Positions 27,653 through 58,366 of a stretch of 64,000 nucleotides of DNA are shown here, in pieces. A program made the translations under genes and the position numbers. Below the pieces are notes generated by a model that was not told the origin of the DNA, did no database searches, and worked only from the letters and a program-made list of their open reading frames with translations. Source of the stretch: an uncultured Gemmatimonadales bacterium. GTDB lineage: Bacteria; Gemmatimonadota; Gemmatimonadetes; Gemmatimonadales; Gemmatimonadaceae. The DNA lies in the NCBI GenBank assembly GCA_963850905.1, contig CAWKMU010000003.1, positions 1,024,001-1,088,000 of the forward strand, in the 5' to 3' direction. Every line of letters begins with the position of its first letter. Positions within the stretch are counted from its first letter, which is position 1.

Positions 27653-28312
27653 ATGGACTGCAGGACCTTTCGGGAGAACCACGCGCAATTCGTAGACGGG
27701 CTCGTTGCTGACGAGGAGCTCGTAACGATGCAGCGACATGTTGCGGAGTGCATCGCGTGCGCGACCCATGATGCGACGATTCGACGCGCGCTGTTGTTGT
27801 TCCGCAATATGCCGGGCATCGAGCCGTCGGCCGAATTCGCAGGTCGTCTCCAAGTGCGTTTGCGCGCAGAGCGAAGGGAGCAGCGTGCCCGCGCACAGAC
27901 GGCGGGATACGGCGGCCGTGGCGCTCGCACCTTTGCGGTCGCGGGGGCAGGCTTGCTCGCCGCTGGCCTTGCCGTCTTCGCGGTGTTGGGGGTAGGCGGC
28001 CACATGTCGGCGTCGGTGTCGACTCTGTCCGCTGCGCCTATGTTGACGTTCTCGCCAGTGGTGGTTGCCGCGGCCGCGCCCCGTTCGCGGCCCGAGCGCG
28101 TCAGGACGATTGTCGGCGCGGGCGCGGCGACCCTCCTGCGCGATGCTGGCGTGCCTCGTCTCGACCCCAGGGATCCGTGGAGTTCCCTCACCGATCCTGC
28201 GTTCGCCGCCTCCGTCTCAGCTGGCATGCCCGTGTGGCCCGCCGCGGCCCTGGCAGCGCACGCGCCAACCGCGTTGGGGTCTCCGATGAAGCTGACGAAT
28301 TTGGAGAGATAG
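27653..28312 (+). CDS. Zinc-finger (zf-HC2) anti-sigma factor, membrane anchored
   Basis: MDC...HVAECIAC (HxxxCxxC) followed by a TM segment, downstream of the ECF sigma. Confidence 0.85.
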   Translation: MDCRTFRENHAQFVDGLVADEELVTMQRHVAECIACATHDATIRRALLLFRNMPGIEPSAEFAGRLQVRLRAERREQRARAQTAGYGGRGARTFAVAGAGLLAAGLAVFAVLGVGGHMSASVSTLSAAPMLTFSPVVVAAAAPRSRPERVRTIVGAGAATLLRDAGVPRLDPRDPWSSLTDPAFAASVSAGMPVWPAAALAAHAPTALGSPMKLTNLER

Positions 28313-28316
28313 AAAA

Positions 28317-28448
28317 GGACGGACGTTAGACGCTGGACGTTAGACGCTGGACGTTAGACGCTAGCACAAACCTCGAGGGCCAGTCGCGGTGCAAGCGGCT
28401 GGCCCTCGATTTGTTTTCAAGCGTCCAGCGTCTAACGTCCAGCGTCTA
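28317..28448. repeat. Heptamer-arm hairpin element (GACGCTG/GACGTTA arms, conserved core)
   Basis: (gacgtta gacgctg)n ... acaaacctcgagggccagtcgcggtgcaagcggctggccctcgatttgtt ... (cagcgtc taacgtc)n. Confidence 0.9.
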
Positions 28449-28455
28449 CTCCCCT

Positions 28456-28701
28456 ATGTCCCCCTCCAACGACTGGGTTTCCCCGAGCGACATCGCCGCC
28501 TACACCTACTGCGCGCGCGCGTACTGGCTCGAGCGGGTGCGGCACTTCGACCGCACGGGCGCGGGCACTGAGCGGCTCGAGATCGGCCAATCGCAGCACC
28601 AATTGCATGGCCGCCGGGTGGCAGCCCAACGTTGGCTGGTCCGACTGGCAATCGTGCTGTTGGTCGGGGCAGCGGGCCTGATGTGGGTGGCGAGTCGGTA
28701 G
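28456..28701 (+). CDS. Small protein: Cas4-like N-terminal segment plus C-terminal TM helix
   Basis: VSPSDIAAYTYCARAYW...G...H matches the Cas4/AddB N-terminal motif. Ends in the hydrophobic run WLVRLAIVLLVGAAGLMWV. Confidence 0.75.
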   Translation: MSPSNDWVSPSDIAAYTYCARAYWLERVRHFDRTGAGTERLEIGQSQHQLHGRRVAAQRWLVRLAIVLLVGAAGLMWVASR

Positions 28702-28718
28702 CGGCGAGACACCGAGTC

Positions 28719-29243
28719 GTGATCCTGCTCGCGATTGGTCTGGTGGTGGTGGCGCTCGCGCTCCTCGTCGGGGCGCGTCGCATTGGCACGGCGACTGGCG
28801 TTCGCACGGGCGCGCCCATCGTGGCGTCGGATGTTGGCGTAGAGCCGTCGGTTCTGCTCGAGGCTCCCATATCCCGGCTTCGAGGGCGCCCAGATTACCT
28901 GCTCCGCGAGCGCGCCCGCGGACGGATCTACCCGGTCGAGGTCAAGCCGACCCGTGAGTCTGCGACGCTGTTCGAGGCGGATCTGCTGCAGATCGGGGCG
29001 TACATGCTCCTGACTGAATCGACGTATGGGCGCGAGTTTGCCGGCTATGGCCTTGTCCGCTATCGATCCGCGGAGTTCCGCGTCGCGCTCACTCGAGACC
29101 TCAGGTGGCGATGTCTCGCAGCTGCGGAAGGTGTCCGTGCGGCGCGGCGAGCGGCCGAGGTGCATCGCAGCCACCGGATTCCCGCGCGGTGCGCCGGCTG
29201 TGCAGTGCGTGGACGCTGTGCGGAGGAACTCCGGGCCTTGTAG
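28719..29243 (+). CDS. Cas4/Dna2-like PD-(D/E)XK nuclease core with N-terminal TM helix
   Basis: ILLAIGLVVVALALLVG, then GRPDY, PVEVK, QIGAY and C-terminal CAGC-x5-C. Confidence 0.85.
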   Translation: MILLAIGLVVVALALLVGARRIGTATGVRTGAPIVASDVGVEPSVLLEAPISRLRGRPDYLLRERARGRIYPVEVKPTRESATLFEADLLQIGAYMLLTESTYGREFAGYGLVRYRSAEFRVALTRDLRWRCLAAAEGVRAARRAAEVHRSHRIPARCAGCAVRGRCAEELRAL

Positions 29244-29252
29244 TTTCCTTTC

Positions 29253-30365
29253 ATGCCCACTGCCAGCGAGCACGTCTTCCGGAAGGCCGTGACGGCTCGG
29301 TCGTTTGCGGCGGTGTACTATCTCCATGGGGACGATGATTTCCGGAAGGAAGACGCCATGTCGGCAGCGCTCGCAGCGGCGGTAGAGCCAGGCTGTCGCG
29401 CGTTTGACCTCGACGTGCGCCGTGCTCAGGATCTCGACGCAGAGTCGATCGTCGCGCTACTCGAGACGCCACCACTCGCCGGATCGCGGCGAGCCGTGGC
29501 CATCCGGGATGTGCACGCGTTGAAAAAGGATGCTCGCAAGGAGCTCGAGCGGTATCTGGACCGTCCGGCAATGGATTTGCTGCTCCTGCTCGTCGGAGTC
29601 GGGGGCGAGAAAGTCGACCGGACGTTGAGCGAGCGCACCGTGGCCGTGGAATTCCCAGTCCTCACCGGCGATCGCCTACCCAGATGGATCGCGCACCGCG
29701 CTAACGAGCTCGGCGTGCCAATCACGCCAGAGGCCGCCACACTGCTGCACGAAGCGGTCGGGACTGATCTGGGCGCACTCGCCTCCGAACTGGACAAGCT
29801 CGCCAGCTACGCGCGCGGCACTGCCGCCGCCACCCGCGAGCCAGGTCAGGGGGGACCAGTCCAGATCGATGACGCAGCAGTGACCGCGGTCGTGGGTGTC
29901 CGCCGCGGCGAGACGTCGGGTGACTTGCTCGACCGCGTGGCCGAGCGCGATGCCAAGGGCGCGCTTGCGCTGGTAGAGCCGGTGCTGGCGCAACCGAAAT
30001 CGAGCGCCGTCGGCACGGTCATGGCCTTGGCCACGCAGACGCTCGCGCTTGCGTGGGGCCGCGCGAAGCGCGAACAAGGTGTGTCACGCAACCGTCTGGC
30101 ACCAGAGTTTTTTGCGCTGCTCAAGGAAACCGGCGCGAGCCCGATGCGCCCCTGGGGTGAAGCGGTCGCAACCTGGGTGCGTGCTGTCGATCTCTGGACG
30201 CCGCAAGCGCTGGACCACGCGCTGGACGCGTTGACACTCGCCGATACCGCGTTGAAGGAGACGCGTATGACAAGCGACGAACAGGCGATCGCCGCCCTCG
30301 TGCTTGCGATGTGCGTCGATGTCGAGCACTCCGCCGCGGTGCGTCACGAGGGAGCGGCCGCGTGA
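29253..30365 (+). CDS. holA: DNA polymerase III subunit delta
   Basis: YYLHGDDDFRK, ETPPL, LPRWI, ELDKLASY, D..LK. Confidence 0.9.
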   Translation: MPTASEHVFRKAVTARSFAAVYYLHGDDDFRKEDAMSAALAAAVEPGCRAFDLDVRRAQDLDAESIVALLETPPLAGSRRAVAIRDVHALKKDARKELERYLDRPAMDLLLLLVGVGGEKVDRTLSERTVAVEFPVLTGDRLPRWIAHRANELGVPITPEAATLLHEAVGTDLGALASELDKLASYARGTAAATREPGQGGPVQIDDAAVTAVVGVRRGETSGDLLDRVAERDAKGALALVEPVLAQPKSSAVGTVMALATQTLALAWGRAKREQGVSRNRLAPEFFALLKETGASPMRPWGEAVATWVRAVDLWTPQALDHALDALTLADTALKETRMTSDEQAIAALVLAMCVDVEHSAAVRHEGAAA

Positions 30366-31573
30366 GTCGCATGCAGGCACCGACCGCACGACGGCGCCCA
30401 CGCCCACGGCAACACTGGTGCCGCGCAGTGCGGATCCGACTGTGTGCGGGTCTGGTCGCCACGGCGGTTGCCGGAGCGATCGCGTCTTCCCTGTACGCGC
30501 AGGGGACCGACAGCGCTCGTGCGACACGAGGCGATAGCGCACAGCCCACAACGCCTCGCGACACCACCCACGGCATCGCCGCGCCCCCCGCCGCGGATGC
30601 CGGGGGCGGGGCGGCACCTGGCCAGGCACGCGATACTGGCGGCGCGAGCAGTCCGCCAGCCGATACTGCCGTGCAGCGCGTGCGCTTGCTCGTGGCACAG
30701 GGGCAGACGACCGCCGCCCGGACACTCGTCGATTCGTTGTTGACGTCGACGCCGCCGACGTCACCGACATACGCGTCGATCCTGTACACGCGCGCCACGC
30801 TTGCGACAAATGCCGACAGCGCGGAGACCGACTACCGCCGCGTCATCGTGGAATACGCGGGATCCCCGCAGGCTGCCGATGCGCTCCTTCGCCTCGCGCA
30901 GCTCGAGTTGGCGCGCGGTGATCGCCAACAGGCGGCGGCGCACCTCGCGCGTCTCACGCGCGAACAGCTGCCGAATCAGACAGGGACCGCATTTGCGCGC
31001 ACCCAGCTGCAAGTGGGGCTGGCCTACTTCGACTTGCAGGATACGGCACGAGCGTGTGTCGCACTCACTGCCGCAAGCACGGCGGCGCCCTCGACTGATG
31101 TCGAGCTCCGCAACCGGATCGATTACAACACGAAACGGTGCGCATCCGCGGGCGGCGGTGCCGCGTCGAGTGCTGCGGCCGACAGCGCGCGTAAAACCGC
31201 CGCCACGCCGTCCCACCGCACGGACTCGGCGGTGAAGGCCGCAGCCGCGCGGGGCGCTGCACCGCCCACCAAGGCAGCGAGCCACGCCGGTGTGCCTGCC
31301 GCATCGACGGCTGGCGCCACCGCCACGACGCGACGAGTGCGGACGCCAGGCTTCACCGTGCAAGTGGCTGCCTATCAGACCGAAAGCGCGGCACAGGCAT
31401 TGGTCGAACACCTGCGAGCGCGTGGCTTCGTCGCGCGGATCTATGGCAGCAGCGCGCCGTTCCGCGTCCGTGTCGGTCGATTCGCGACCGAGACTCAGGC
31501 CGATTCGGCTGCGGGGTCACTCAAGAGTAAAGGCATCACGGGGTTCGTGACGCCGGCCGAGATGACGGAGTAG
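30362..31573 (+). CDS. Exported TPR + SPOR domain protein
   Basis: Signal-like segment, TPR-like YRRVIVEY...ALLRLAQLE, C-terminal SPOR FTVQVAAY...FRVRVGRF. Confidence 0.85.
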   Translation: MSRMQAPTARRRPRPRQHWCRAVRIRLCAGLVATAVAGAIASSLYAQGTDSARATRGDSAQPTTPRDTTHGIAAPPAADAGGGAAPGQARDTGGASSPPADTAVQRVRLLVAQGQTTAARTLVDSLLTSTPPTSPTYASILYTRATLATNADSAETDYRRVIVEYAGSPQAADALLRLAQLELARGDRQQAAAHLARLTREQLPNQTGTAFARTQLQVGLAYFDLQDTARACVALTAASTAAPSTDVELRNRIDYNTKRCASAGGGAASSAAADSARKTAATPSHRTDSAVKAAAARGAAPPTKAASHAGVPAASTAGATATTRRVRTPGFTVQVAAYQTESAAQALVEHLRARGFVARIYGSSAPFRVRVGRFATETQADSAAGSLKSKGITGFVTPAEMTE

Positions 31574-32849
31574 CATCGGGATTTCGGACTGCCGCCCAGG
31601 TCCAGATGGCGGCGGAAACCAAGACGCCCACTGGGATGATGAGGACGGCGCGCGCCAGCGTCGCTCGATCTGACACCCACCCGATGATGGTCGGCGAGAT
31701 GCCGTCACCCAGTGCATGAATCGTCAGAATCGATGCGGCCATCGCGGCCGCTCGCGCCGCCGGGGCGACGTCCGCGACGATCACCGCGTTGATCGGGCTC
31801 GTCGAGAGGAAGAGCAGGAAATCGGCCATGGCCAGGGCCGTCCAAAACACCGCCGGTGACGATGCCGTGAGCGCCACGTACACGAGCGGCGTCGCAACGA
31901 GCATCGAAAGCGCGCTGAGCCAGAGATAGCCATGTCGGATGCGTCGCTCGAGTGCGTCCCCGATCACGCCGCCAAGAAAAGTCCCCACGAATCCGGTAAT
32001 GACGACGATCAGTCCCAGCCACTTGTTGGCGGTGACCGCGTCGAGGCCGCGTACCCGGATCAAGAATGTCACCATCCAGATGCTGATGCCGCCGAACGCG
32101 AACGTGTACGCGGCATACCCGAGCACCGTGAGGATGTATTCGCGGTTGTGGGTGAGCGAACGATACGCCCCCAAACCCTGCACACTGGCGGGTGCCGCGG
32201 AGTACATCCCGACATTTGCCTCGCGGGTGTCGTGCGCGCCTGGCGCGGGGTTGCGCAGCATTAGCGTCAGGGCGGCGACCACGAGGCCGGGTAACCCGAC
32301 GACGAAGAATGCGGCGCGCCAGCCGGCGCGGTGATCGACATACCCCCCGATCAGGAACCCGAGCGCCGCACCGACCGGGATGGCGGCGTAGAACACCCCA
32401 AAGACGCGCCCGCGCAGTCGTTCGGGGAAATAGTCCGCCAGGACCGCGGGGGCGATCGCCGAGTACGCTGCCTCGCCGATTCCGACGGTCGCGCGGGCGC
32501 CAAGCAACGATTCGTAGTTCTGCGCCAGCCCAGCGGCAGCCGTCGCGAGGCTCCACAACGCAATGCCCACGGCAACCAAACGGAGCCGCCAGGGACGGCT
32601 CCCATAGAAGCCAAAGACGGGGGCGGTGAGCATGTAGACCCAGAGGAACGCGGTCGCCAGGAATCCGATCTGGAGGTCGGATGGCTGCAACGCGGAGTGC
32701 TTGATGCTTTCCTGCACCGCTGGGACGACGAACCGATCGATGTAGTTGAACAGGTTGATGAGCGTGAGGACGGCCAGCGCCATCCACGCCGCGCGGGGCG
32801 GCGCGTCGCGCTCGTGATTTTGCATGGGCGCCGGGGCGATGGTCGCCAT
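31536..32849 (-). CDS. MFS transporter (spinster-like)
   Basis: NLFNYIDR, GIGEAAY...LADYFP, about 12 TM segments, HALGD. Confidence 0.92.
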   Translation of the reverse strand: MATIAPAPMQNHERDAPPRAAWMALAVLTLINLFNYIDRFVVPAVQESIKHSALQPSDLQIGFLATAFLWVYMLTAPVFGFYGSRPWRLRLVAVGIALWSLATAAAGLAQNYESLLGARATVGIGEAAYSAIAPAVLADYFPERLRGRVFGVFYAAIPVGAALGFLIGGYVDHRAGWRAAFFVVGLPGLVVAALTLMLRNPAPGAHDTREANVGMYSAAPASVQGLGAYRSLTHNREYILTVLGYAAYTFAFGGISIWMVTFLIRVRGLDAVTANKWLGLIVVITGFVGTFLGGVIGDALERRIRHGYLWLSALSMLVATPLVYVALTASSPAVFWTALAMADFLLFLSTSPINAVIVADVAPAARAAAMAASILTIHALGDGISPTIIGWVSDRATLARAVLIIPVGVLVSAAIWTWAAVRNPDATPSSRPASRTP

Positions 32850-56657: not shown

Positions 56658-58366
56658 TGGGCTCGCGGGATGAGGGGCAGGTAATGACCGGTGCTGGCGC
56701 CGAGGTCGTGGCGGCGCACGCGCACGCGCGCAGTACGTCCCGCCCTGTGCACCGAGCCCTCGGCGCGACCTGGGCGGACGCCGTCGTCGACGCGCTGGTG
56801 GCCATCGGCGTGCGCCGGCTGTTCGGTATGCCCGGCGGCGGCAGTAACTCCGATCTGATCCAGGCCGCAACACGGGCACGCCTGCCATTTTCTCTCGCCC
56901 ACACAGAGTCGGCGTCGGCCTTCATGGCCACGGCGCAAGCCGAGCTGAGCGGCGCCCCCGGAGCATGCCTTGCGACCTTGGGTCCTGGTGCTGCCTCGAT
57001 GGTCAATGGCGTCGCGAACGCGCACCTCGATCGTGTGCCGCTCATGGTGATCACGGATTGCCGCACCGAGGAGATGGCCGCGGTCATGGAACATCAGACG
57101 CTTTCCCACGGCGCCATTTTCTCATCGATGGTGAAATGGAGCGGCCGTCCGACGCCGGCGACTGGCGTTCGAGCGCTGCAGGCGGCGTTGGACTCTGTCA
57201 CGACCCCACCCTCGGGTCCCGTGCATCTCGATCTCGCCGTCGAGTTCACCTCCGCCGCGGTCAGCGACAGCGATCGCGAAATCCGACCGGCCCCTCGTCC
57301 CACCCGGACACTCGACCCGCTCCCCGCTGATATCGCGCACCTGCTCCGGAGCGCGCGCCGGCCTGTCCTGCTGATTGGCCTGGGCGCGCGCTCTCCCACG
57401 CTGGCTTCGCACCTCCGTGAACTCGCATCGCGTGTCGGAATACCTGCGCTAGTGACCTACAAGGCGAAGGGTGTCGTGCCCGATCGGCACCCGTGGTTTG
57501 CCGGCGTCTTGACGAACGGCGCACTGGAGCGCGAGGTCCTCGAGCGCGCCGATGTATTCCTGGCCGTCGGGCTCGACCCGGTGGAACTCCTACCGCGACC
57601 CTGGCGGTGTGCGCAGCCCATCGTGGCGATCAATGAGTGGGCGCTGCATCAGCAGCAGCTGCCGCTTCGTCACGAGATCGTCGGTGAGCTCGGCCGTGGT
57701 CTCGCCATGGTCGATGCGCAGTTGAGCACGCCCAGTGACTGGGATTCGACCGAGGTCGGCCAGCTGGCCGAGAGTCAGAGGGCGTGTATGCGGCAGGGCG
57801 ACGCACCGGGCCTTCTGCCGCACCGCGTTGTGGATCTCGTCGCGGATGCCTATCCCACGGCGCGTATCACGGTCGACGCGGGCGCCCACATGTTCCCGGT
57901 GATGTCGTTGTGGCCGGCGAGTGAGCCAATGGGCGTGCTCATCTCCAACGGACTTGCCACGATGGGCTTCGCTGTGCCGGCCGCAATCGGCGCCGCTCTC
58001 CTCGATCGCGGTCGTCCGACCATCGCGCTGACCGGCGACGGCGGGCTCCTCATGTGCGTGGCCGAGCTCCTGACGGCGGCTCGCGAACGCTTGCCCATCC
58101 GCGTCATCGTCTTCGACGATGCGGCGCTCAGCCTGATCAAGGTCAAGCAGGAACAGCGGGGATACGAACCCAACGGTGTCATGATGGGGCGCACCGACTG
58201 GCGAGCCGTCGGAGCCGGCTTCGGTGTGACGGTGCGTGAGGCGGACAACGAGACGACTCTGGTCGAGGCGCTCGCGCAGACGAAGGCCGACCCCGGCCCG
58301 GTCTTGATCGCGGCACGAGTCGCGGCGGAGACGTACGGAGCGACGATGCGGGCGCTGCGCGGGTGA
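56657..58366 (+). CDS. Thiamine-pyrophosphate-dependent enzyme (acetolactate-synthase-like)
   Basis: FGMPGGG, HTESASAFMA, TLGPGA, TMGFAVPAAIG, GDGG. Alternative start at 56684. Confidence 0.9.
   Translation: MGSRDEGQVMTGAGAEVVAAHAHARSTSRPVHRALGATWADAVVDALVAIGVRRLFGMPGGGSNSDLIQAATRARLPFSLAHTESASAFMATAQAELSGAPGACLATLGPGAASMVNGVANAHLDRVPLMVITDCRTEEMAAVMEHQTLSHGAIFSSMVKWSGRPTPATGVRALQAALDSVTTPPSGPVHLDLAVEFTSAAVSDSDREIRPAPRPTRTLDPLPADIAHLLRSARRPVLLIGLGARSPTLASHLRELASRVGIPALVTYKAKGVVPDRHPWFAGVLTNGALEREVLERADVFLAVGLDPVELLPRPWRCAQPIVAINEWALHQQQLPLRHEIVGELGRGLAMVDAQLSTPSDWDSTEVGQLAESQRACMRQGDAPGLLPHRVVDLVADAYPTARITVDAGAHMFPVMSLWPASEPMGVLISNGLATMGFAVPAAIGAALLDRGRPTIALTGDGGLLMCVAELLTAARERLPIRVIVFDDAALSLIKVKQEQRGYEPNGVMMGRTDWRAVGAGFGVTVREADNETTLVEALAQTKADPGPVLIAARVAAETYGATMRALRG

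Follow-up and report, generated by a model that had tools for sequence, protein, structure and literature searches.

A conserved two-gene, membrane-anchored Cas4-like protein pair predicted to share one iron-sulfur nuclease site

The window, a 64,000-nucleotide stretch from an uncultured Gemmatimonadales bacterium, contains two short neighbouring genes that together resemble Cas4. Gene A (28456..28701, + strand, 81 aa; open reading frame and profile match) encodes an N-terminal Cas4-like part followed by a C-terminal membrane helix. Gene B (28719..29243, + strand, 174 aa, GTG start) encodes an N-terminal membrane helix, a nuclease core and three cysteines. A and B are separated by 17 nt with a change of frame, and holA (29253..30365, + strand), which encodes DNA polymerase III delta (TIGR01128, E 7e-43), starts 9 nt past the end of B. 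Re-reading of the sequence returned the coordinates, frames, motifs and both gaps given in the original prediction. An intergenic palindromic repeat (28321..28448, unstranded, consensus match only) surrounds a terminator-like hairpin (28373-28409) that probably sets A-B-holA apart from the sigma/anti-sigma pair before it. A search of 28200-31700 gave no sigma-70-like promoter. The hairpin is flanked by three 14-nt direct repeats and their inverted copies, and a 20-mer from the element is present 14 times in the genome, resembling a REP-type intergenic element.

The Cas4 profile TIGR00372 is divided between the genes. A matches positions 2-42 (E 0.007, 16.3 bits) and B matches positions 52-178 (E 2e-12, 47.1 bits), both below the curated cut-off of 65 bits. 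PF12705 is split likewise (A positions 2-44, B positions 114-246), and PF01930, with a cut-off of 22.7 bits, gives 11.6 bits for A and has no listed match for B. Since A and B match complementary ends of the profiles, they appear to be halves of one Cas4-type protein. The single cysteine of A, Cys19 (28510..28512, + strand), is the putative first Fe-S ligand and His48 (28597..28599, + strand) is the RecB motif-I histidine, both placed by profile alignment. The GRPD (56-59), EVK (74-76) and QIGAY (91-95) motifs of B carry the predicted catalytic residues D59 (PD), E74-x-K76 and Q91-x3-Y95 (28893..29003, + strand, by alignment). The remaining three Fe-S ligands would be those of C158-x2-C161-x5-C167 (29190..29219, + strand), conserved in 140/140 sequences. 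C19, G44 and H48 are invariant in the A alignment (A4, 57 sequences), as are G56, P58, D59, K76, H152, C158, C161 and C167 in the B alignment (A5, 140 sequences), with E74 (139), Q91 (136) and Y95 (138) nearly so. RecB motifs II, III and QxxxY are present in B. The four cysteines expected in one Cas4 chain are divided between A and B, and the complete set is found in A and B jointly or in fused relatives. By sequence comparison, A and B together hold every conserved Cas4 residue, each exactly once.

Profile alignments of A with 4r5q and 8d3l (E 0.43 and 0.063) are weak alone. On Pcal_0546 (4R5Q, with a 3-residue numbering offset) Cys19 corresponds to Cys64, His48 to His94, D59 to Asp123 and E74 to Glu136. 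According to the available text of PMC4176176, Cys64 is a cluster ligand, His94 is a proposed fourth metal ligand with SSO0001 His62 as its equivalent, and Cas4 proteins bear either a [4Fe-4S] or a [2Fe-2S] cluster. The correspondence of Cys19 with Cys64 and of His48 with His94 suggests that A contributes to the cluster and, probably, to the active site.

The membrane helices were called by hydropathy (Kyte-Doolittle, 19-residue window), not by a trained TM predictor. Residues 61-79 of A (28636..28692, + strand) score 2.27 and follow an Arg-rich stretch. Residues 1-19 of B (28719..28775, + strand) score 2.99 and are followed by RR, and a basic n-region is absent. A helix with a Kyte-Doolittle value of at least 1.8 occurs in 56/57 A and 139/140 B family members, the B set having been gathered with a profile that includes the helix. 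Hydropathy therefore supports the original claim of one membrane helix in each protein, both here and across the family. Lysine and arginine are in excess before the A helix in 55/57 sequences and after the B helix in 137/140, a count biased by the short outer tails. By the positive-inside rule, basic residues mark the cytoplasmic side of membrane helices. Since they lie on the soluble-domain side in both proteins, both domains are predicted to be cytoplasmic, with A oriented N-in/C-out and B N-out/C-in.

The two frames could instead be a single gene, either interrupted through decay or an error in sequencing, or read as one chain by readthrough or frameshifting. In this genome the B frame stays open ahead of its start codon and reaches back into the end of A, and natural A-B fusions exist; in the closest relative (L002), however, the B frame opens only past the A stop. 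Logan contigs of 4 of 12 public runs were compared, with bridging judged by a 31-letter flank rule, and independent contigs match the assembly sequence at the junction. One contig (X1 record 6, 28453-28812) bridges it with 1 substitution and 0 gaps, X1 being possibly the source sample. X3 record 14 and X5 record 16 span 28690-28720 without difference and have a right flank of less than 31 letters, and run X7 has no piece across the junction. The read-level check of 28690-28720 suggested with the original prediction thus gave a junction bridged without an indel by one contig, and the split is not an artefact. Ratios of dN/dS against four congeners are 0.13-0.29 for A and 0.14-0.34 for B (0.13-0.34 over both), next to 0.10-0.17 for holA, and indicate that A and B are both under purifying selection at a strength similar to holA. 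The agreeing contigs and low dN/dS together suggest that A and B are real, selected genes. In the congener G007 (L011/L014, G007:C30 ~56748-57243) B is frameshifted; this assembly is 74% complete and the frameshift is due to error or decay.

The genomes of relatives bear on the same question. B is present in 12/61 relatives, a count that includes this genome and all 9 congeners. A separate A lies directly upstream at the 14 fetched loci (13 distinct places), one A being partial at a contig end. In a sample of 301 genomes from the window's phylum, where the searches scored 11-18 candidates per genome, the same 5 genomes hold a strong B (E <= 8e-47) and a strong A (E <= 3e-23), and the weaker B matches are mostly CRISPR-type Cas4 or Cas4-Cas1 at the loci inspected. 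An even sample of 201 Chloroflexota genomes has a strong B (E < 1e-55) in 44 and a strong A (E < 1e-20) in 43, all within the 44, although kin genomes are not independent in this count. The one genome of the 44 with a strong B and no A is a fragmented one. Of the 43 pairs, 37 are within ~210 nt, 3 are at 650-800 nt, 2 are on different contigs and 1 is at 619 kb.

A scan of species genomes gave 587 confirmed B stretches, of which the best 80 comprise 79 from Chloroflexota and 1 from Acidobacteriota. No fusion occurs among these best 80, and in 60 of them a separate A lies upstream. The upstream A is within 150 nt in 42/60, with the three frame offsets represented 8, 14 and 20 times, and at 250-1331 nt in 18/60, where another gene, e.g. 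an L,D-transpeptidase, often lies between A and B. Four of the 20 loci without a nearby A have less than 1 kb of upstream sequence, and 9 of the 10 of these genomes that were searched hold one A elsewhere. In five chromosome-level assemblies of Caldilineaceae, A and B are ~0.4-5.4 Mb apart in linear coordinates. In G334 the distance is 619 kb on opposite strands of the same contig, as confirmed; the other Caldilineaceae pairs, judged by sizes, presumably share a contig as well. These counts indicate that the two-gene split is the normal state of the family and that A and B are separate, selected and co-inherited genes, A being beside B or elsewhere in the genome across lineages, so the conserved split of the original prediction is borne out. 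One broken gene would not leave a split that is seen in every frame offset, with other genes in between, or with megabases separating A from B. That unlinked halves are kept rules out frameshifting and readthrough and indicates function in trans, and the single-gene explanation is left with a negligible probability. Because the genes are co-retained even when far apart, two chains probably come together to form the enzyme.

Searched against 1.84 billion representatives, the B profile gives 215 matches at E <= 1e-30. The best 150 of these 215 include 13 single chains with the order A-helix-loop-helix-B, and 1 more fusion occurs among the 81 matches of a separate search. Named fusions are those of the cultured methanogens Methanofollis formosanus (WP_220682637.1) and Methermicoccus shengliensis (the WP_052353351.1 cluster), and the cluster MDQ3605838.1; the named fusion clusters include a Gemmatimonadota bacterium. 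In an AF2 model of the fusion P0091 (pLDDT 90.9, 13-sequence alignment), the motif-I helix continues straight into the first membrane helix. Residues 1-269 of this model align to Cas4 7mi4_A with Z 18.8, rmsd 3.2 and 187 aligned residues. The Cas4 fold is thus recognised, here and by Foldseek, on P0091 as a fused relative and not on the separate A or B. The fusions show that A and B correspond in sequence to the halves of natural single-chain proteins with a two-helix hairpin after the motif-I helix.

A quick tree of 93 nuclease cores sets 14 CRISPR-type Cas4 apart from the A/B family on a branch with 99% SH-aLRT. Fused forms interleave with split forms and need 4 changes, at least 3 of which are forced by strong branches, suggesting that fusion or fission occurred more than once. 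Since the tree is unrooted and poorly resolved (42/89 inner branches open), no root and no direction of fusion versus fission are claimed.

A modelled complex of A, B and [4Fe-4S] scores 0.87, compared with 0.13 for the best of 3 controls. Its runs agree in at least 97% of contacts and the partner pLDDT is at least 75. The score mark is reached by 116/157 solved and 2/215 mismatched pairs, in a calibration with no ligand and no user alignments. The modelled interface consists of helix-helix contacts and of A residues 5-28 against the Cys region of B, while the strand and helices of A pack on the B core with sub-angstrom expected error. His48 is not among the confident interface residues. The co-modelling proposed earlier thus returned a high-scoring complex in which the N-terminal region of A is predicted to meet the three-Cys region of B. 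The score may be due to likeness to solved single-chain Cas4, and halves of a split gene tend to pass complex scoring by likeness to solved structures. The model supports a heterodimer without showing it.

A and B are therefore read, with good but incomplete confidence, as probable subunits of one Cas4/RecB-like iron-staple nuclease on the cytoplasmic face of the inner membrane. Each chain would insert on its own in the predicted N-in/C-out (A) and N-out/C-in (B) orientation, and the two membrane helices would pair. The N-terminal arm of A would pack on the nuclease core of B, Cys19 would join the Fe-S cluster completed by the three cysteines of B, and His48 would probably go to the metal site. 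An Fe-S site built from two chains, the central claim of the original prediction, is supported by the 1+3 distribution of cysteines and by the model. If A supplies Cys19 and probably His48, full activity would need both chains; the earlier suggestion of activity only on assembly is thus probably supported, and it is strengthened by the invariant His48 at the predicted metal-ligand position.

Other Cas4 proteins tolerate cluster loss, and B might for that reason cut alone. Cleavage was not abolished in cluster-free Pcal_0546 and SSO1391 (available text of PMC4176176) and the Methanosarcina mazei solo-Cas4 still cleaves without its cluster (available text of PMC12501428). B would then be a working membrane-anchored nuclease by itself and A a stabiliser or regulator, not an obligate half, which would suit the uncertain His48 contact in the model and the unlinked A and B, which allow separate control. 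This is quite unlikely, as A gives the strand and helices packed on the B core and the invariant motif-I histidine, and a strong B is without A only in the fragmented genome among the 44 and in 1/10 of the searched genomes whose B locus has no A nearby.

The divergent clades raise another question about catalysis. The split and both helices recur at all 16 loci fetched from these clades, with E-values for A of up to 0.01, and in 6/16 the catalytic Asp or ExK is changed with the cysteines and helices retained. Such loss could mean that the complex mainly serves at the membrane as an Fe-S sensor or as a tether that binds DNA without catalysis. For the window's clade, however, this is improbable, because D59 and K76 are kept in every B sequence and E74, Q91 and Y95 in nearly every one. 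L177, L178 and L181-L184 are divergent pairs with a longer A, an altered Asp or ExK, four cysteines and both helices. A gene with an HD domain immediately precedes A in L182, and a similar gene is found in several other divergent loci.

The heterodimeric nuclease remains the preferred reading, and a broader proposition built on it is offered with less than even confidence. A and B may represent a widespread and so far undescribed class of membrane nucleases whose cluster and metal site are spread across two separately encoded and regulated proteins. Assembly would be the on-switch for cutting DNA at the membrane, fusion and fission would have been repeated, and one lineage would have become a tether or sensor after catalysis was lost.

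A role in DNA uptake was among those originally suggested. In one form of it, A/B would process DNA that enters through the ComEC channel during natural competence. ComEC is found in 44/44 B-positive Chloroflexota, yet also in 141/157 others (185/201 in total), and kin are not independent here either. The 4 other A+B genomes tested in the window's family have ComEC, and it is present in 5/5 other family genomes tested. In the window's genus, however, ComEC was not found in 10/10 genomes, 4 of which are at least 92% complete, and a tblastn search with the ComEC of 3 relatives gave nothing in this genome. The flanks of the relatives' comEC are ~400 bp apart on one contig here (G000:C3 ~2890886-2891285), so that comEC appears to be cleanly lost at the syntenic site. 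A and B are under purifying selection although comEC is missing. Natural uptake is therefore an unlikely reason for keeping the pair here; the competence role is rejected for this genus and is very doubtful overall.

The original prediction also considered replication-linked repair on the basis of the coupling to holA. holA adjoins A-B in 10/10 genus genomes, and the order sigma/anti-sigma-A-B-holA occurs in this genus only, with 5 loci from 4 other genera having other neighbours or no holA flank. The coupling does not extend to other lineages, and holA is a downstream neighbour, not part of the A/B system. In a survey of selected gene families, Anaerolineae-type loci have the order ssb...DUF3467-A-B-NAD kinase...recN, other genera of the window's family have lipid A acyltransferase-A-B-oppC, and rarA or a dnaE-type polymerase is near A-B at single loci. 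At 10 loci (L064, L072, L086, L094, L097, L099, L107, L119, L158, L162) a YkuD L,D-transpeptidase gene is found either in the interval between A and B or immediately upstream of them. At other loci, e.g. L110, an unannotated gene of ~210 codons lies between A and B.

The most likely role, although a tentative one, is a housekeeping one at the membrane, where ends or single strands of the cell's own DNA would be processed in repair or replication clean-up. The pair is a single chromosomal copy in the main clades, and its neighbours in different lineages include holA, ssb, recN, rarA and the dnaE-type polymerase. However, these DNA-metabolism genes are mixed with genes for NAD kinase, L,D-transpeptidase, lipid A acyltransferase, OppC and an HD protein. 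A/B is also patchy, being present in 5/301 genomes of the window's phylum, a pattern in keeping with accessory or defence genes. The main alternative role, possible but of lower probability, is that the pair trims foreign DNA on its way in.

As a defence system, the same heterodimer would degrade phage or plasmid DNA crossing the membrane, a possible but rather unlikely function. The spread is patchy over several phyla and both domains. One subclade lies near genes for a DpnII-like endonuclease, a type III restriction-like helicase and a Schlafen/AlbA protein, and near a transposase-associated DUF4158 gene. In S. elongatus, another Cas4-like nuclease restricts the transfer or maintenance of plasmids (available text of PMC10653904). 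The main clades, however, have a single copy at fixed housekeeping sites, and no defence genes flank the window locus. PADLOC 2.0 returned only generic Cas4 and weak DruK profile matches for the 5 proteins scanned. Housekeeping is slightly favoured over defence. One genome (G394) has two copies of the subclade pair (L190, L191), with L192 in G520, suggesting mobility.

Three further explanations were considered and rejected. SOS control was rejected because a LexA-like box is found upstream of A in 1/60 cases with 0.5 expected, which is chance level and no enrichment. A viral origin was rejected because 14 pattern matches in viral contigs, from one pattern and one scan, yielded 1 weak partial relative. 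Replacement of AddAB/RecBCD is not supported, as 25/44 B-positive Chloroflexota have a strong PF12705 match, as do 118/157 others; at least 11 of the 25 positive genomes have ~1000-aa helicase-nuclease-sized frames, so there is no exclusion with AddAB-like proteins. The PF12705 search of this genome gave 0 matches but missed even B itself and is therefore uninformative. This genome (G000, 82% complete) and G004 (93%) have two UvrD-type genes each, an AddA-sized frame not being found, whereas three congeners have frames of 987-1306 aa.

The pair was also compared with known systems. CRISPR-associated Cas4 (TIGR00372/PF01930; 7MI4, 8D3L, SSO0001 4IC1, Pcal_0546 4R5Q) shares its fold with the fused relative, and shares the 1+3 Cys iron staple, RecB motifs I, II and III and QxxxY with A/B. 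Unlike it, A/B is encoded by two genes, has a pair of membrane helices placed after motif I and before the core, and gives profile scores under the curated cut-off. A simple repeat scan found no array in the window and one 3-copy match elsewhere in the genome. cas1 and a second Cas4-like match were not found in this genome (82% complete), and no cas genes occur among the neighbour families scanned, the window neighbours being anti-sigma and holA. The absence of a CRISPR array or other cas gene from the window, as first noted, is therefore upheld. A/B lies outside CRISPR-cas and mobile-element contexts, as solo-Cas4 does.

A monophyletic group of solo-Cas4 is reported in many Chloroflexi (Hudaiberdiev 2017, PMC5704561, in the part available), with one each in Anaerolinea, Caldilinea, Roseiflexus and Herpetosiphon in its table. 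These Chloroflexi solo-Cas4 are probably B genes. All solo-Cas4 members in that source have four cysteines in one module, whereas A/B splits them, and the words 'split' and 'transmembrane' have 0 occurrences in its main text. The M. mazei solo-Cas4 is a purified single-gene oligomer with 0 occurrences of 'membrane' in the available text of PMC12501428, in contrast to the two-gene, membrane-anchored A/B. AddB, AdnA, Dna2, Exo5 and ACE1 share the nuclease fold and a first cysteine far from the other three (Z 9-13); they are soluble and consist of one chain, which in many cases is fused to a helicase or Argonaute or has one as its partner. A and B have no helicase domain and the conserved neighbours scanned include neither a helicase nor an Argonaute partner, which separates the pair from AddAB, AdnAB and RecBCD.

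No description of a split or membrane-anchored Cas4 was found in the literature searched, with subscription journals mostly outside its scope. PMC10541130 was rejected as an earlier description, the matching words in its available text being in unrelated passages. A/B is thus apparently a conserved, unpublished architecture of a known enzyme type; judged by its residues, it would work like a Cas4/RecB iron-staple nuclease and be a solo, non-CRISPR member in the broad sense. New from this locus are the finding that unlinked halves are retained together, the placement of the motif-I His on A, the loss of comEC and the clade in which catalysis has decayed.

The characterised iron-staple nucleases in the cited papers and structure matches are soluble, with four cluster ligands per chain. 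If true, a membrane-held version with its cluster shared between subunits would offer a new means of confining or switching a nuclease, and A/B provides a possible anatomy for the 'solo-Cas4 of Chloroflexi'. The annotation is also corrected: B is labelled 'CRISPR-associated Cas4' despite lacking a quarter of the fold, and A proteins, which have no Pfam match, are annotated 'hypothetical' or unnamed. The fused membrane Cas4 (the WP_220682637.1, WP_052353351.1 and MDQ3605838.1 clusters) combine the residues of A and B and both helices in a single chain, and databases label them simply 'Cas4'. Fused forms have 2 or up to 8 helices, the latter in P0206, a member of 559 aa in which eight membrane helices are predicted to separate the two Cas4 halves.
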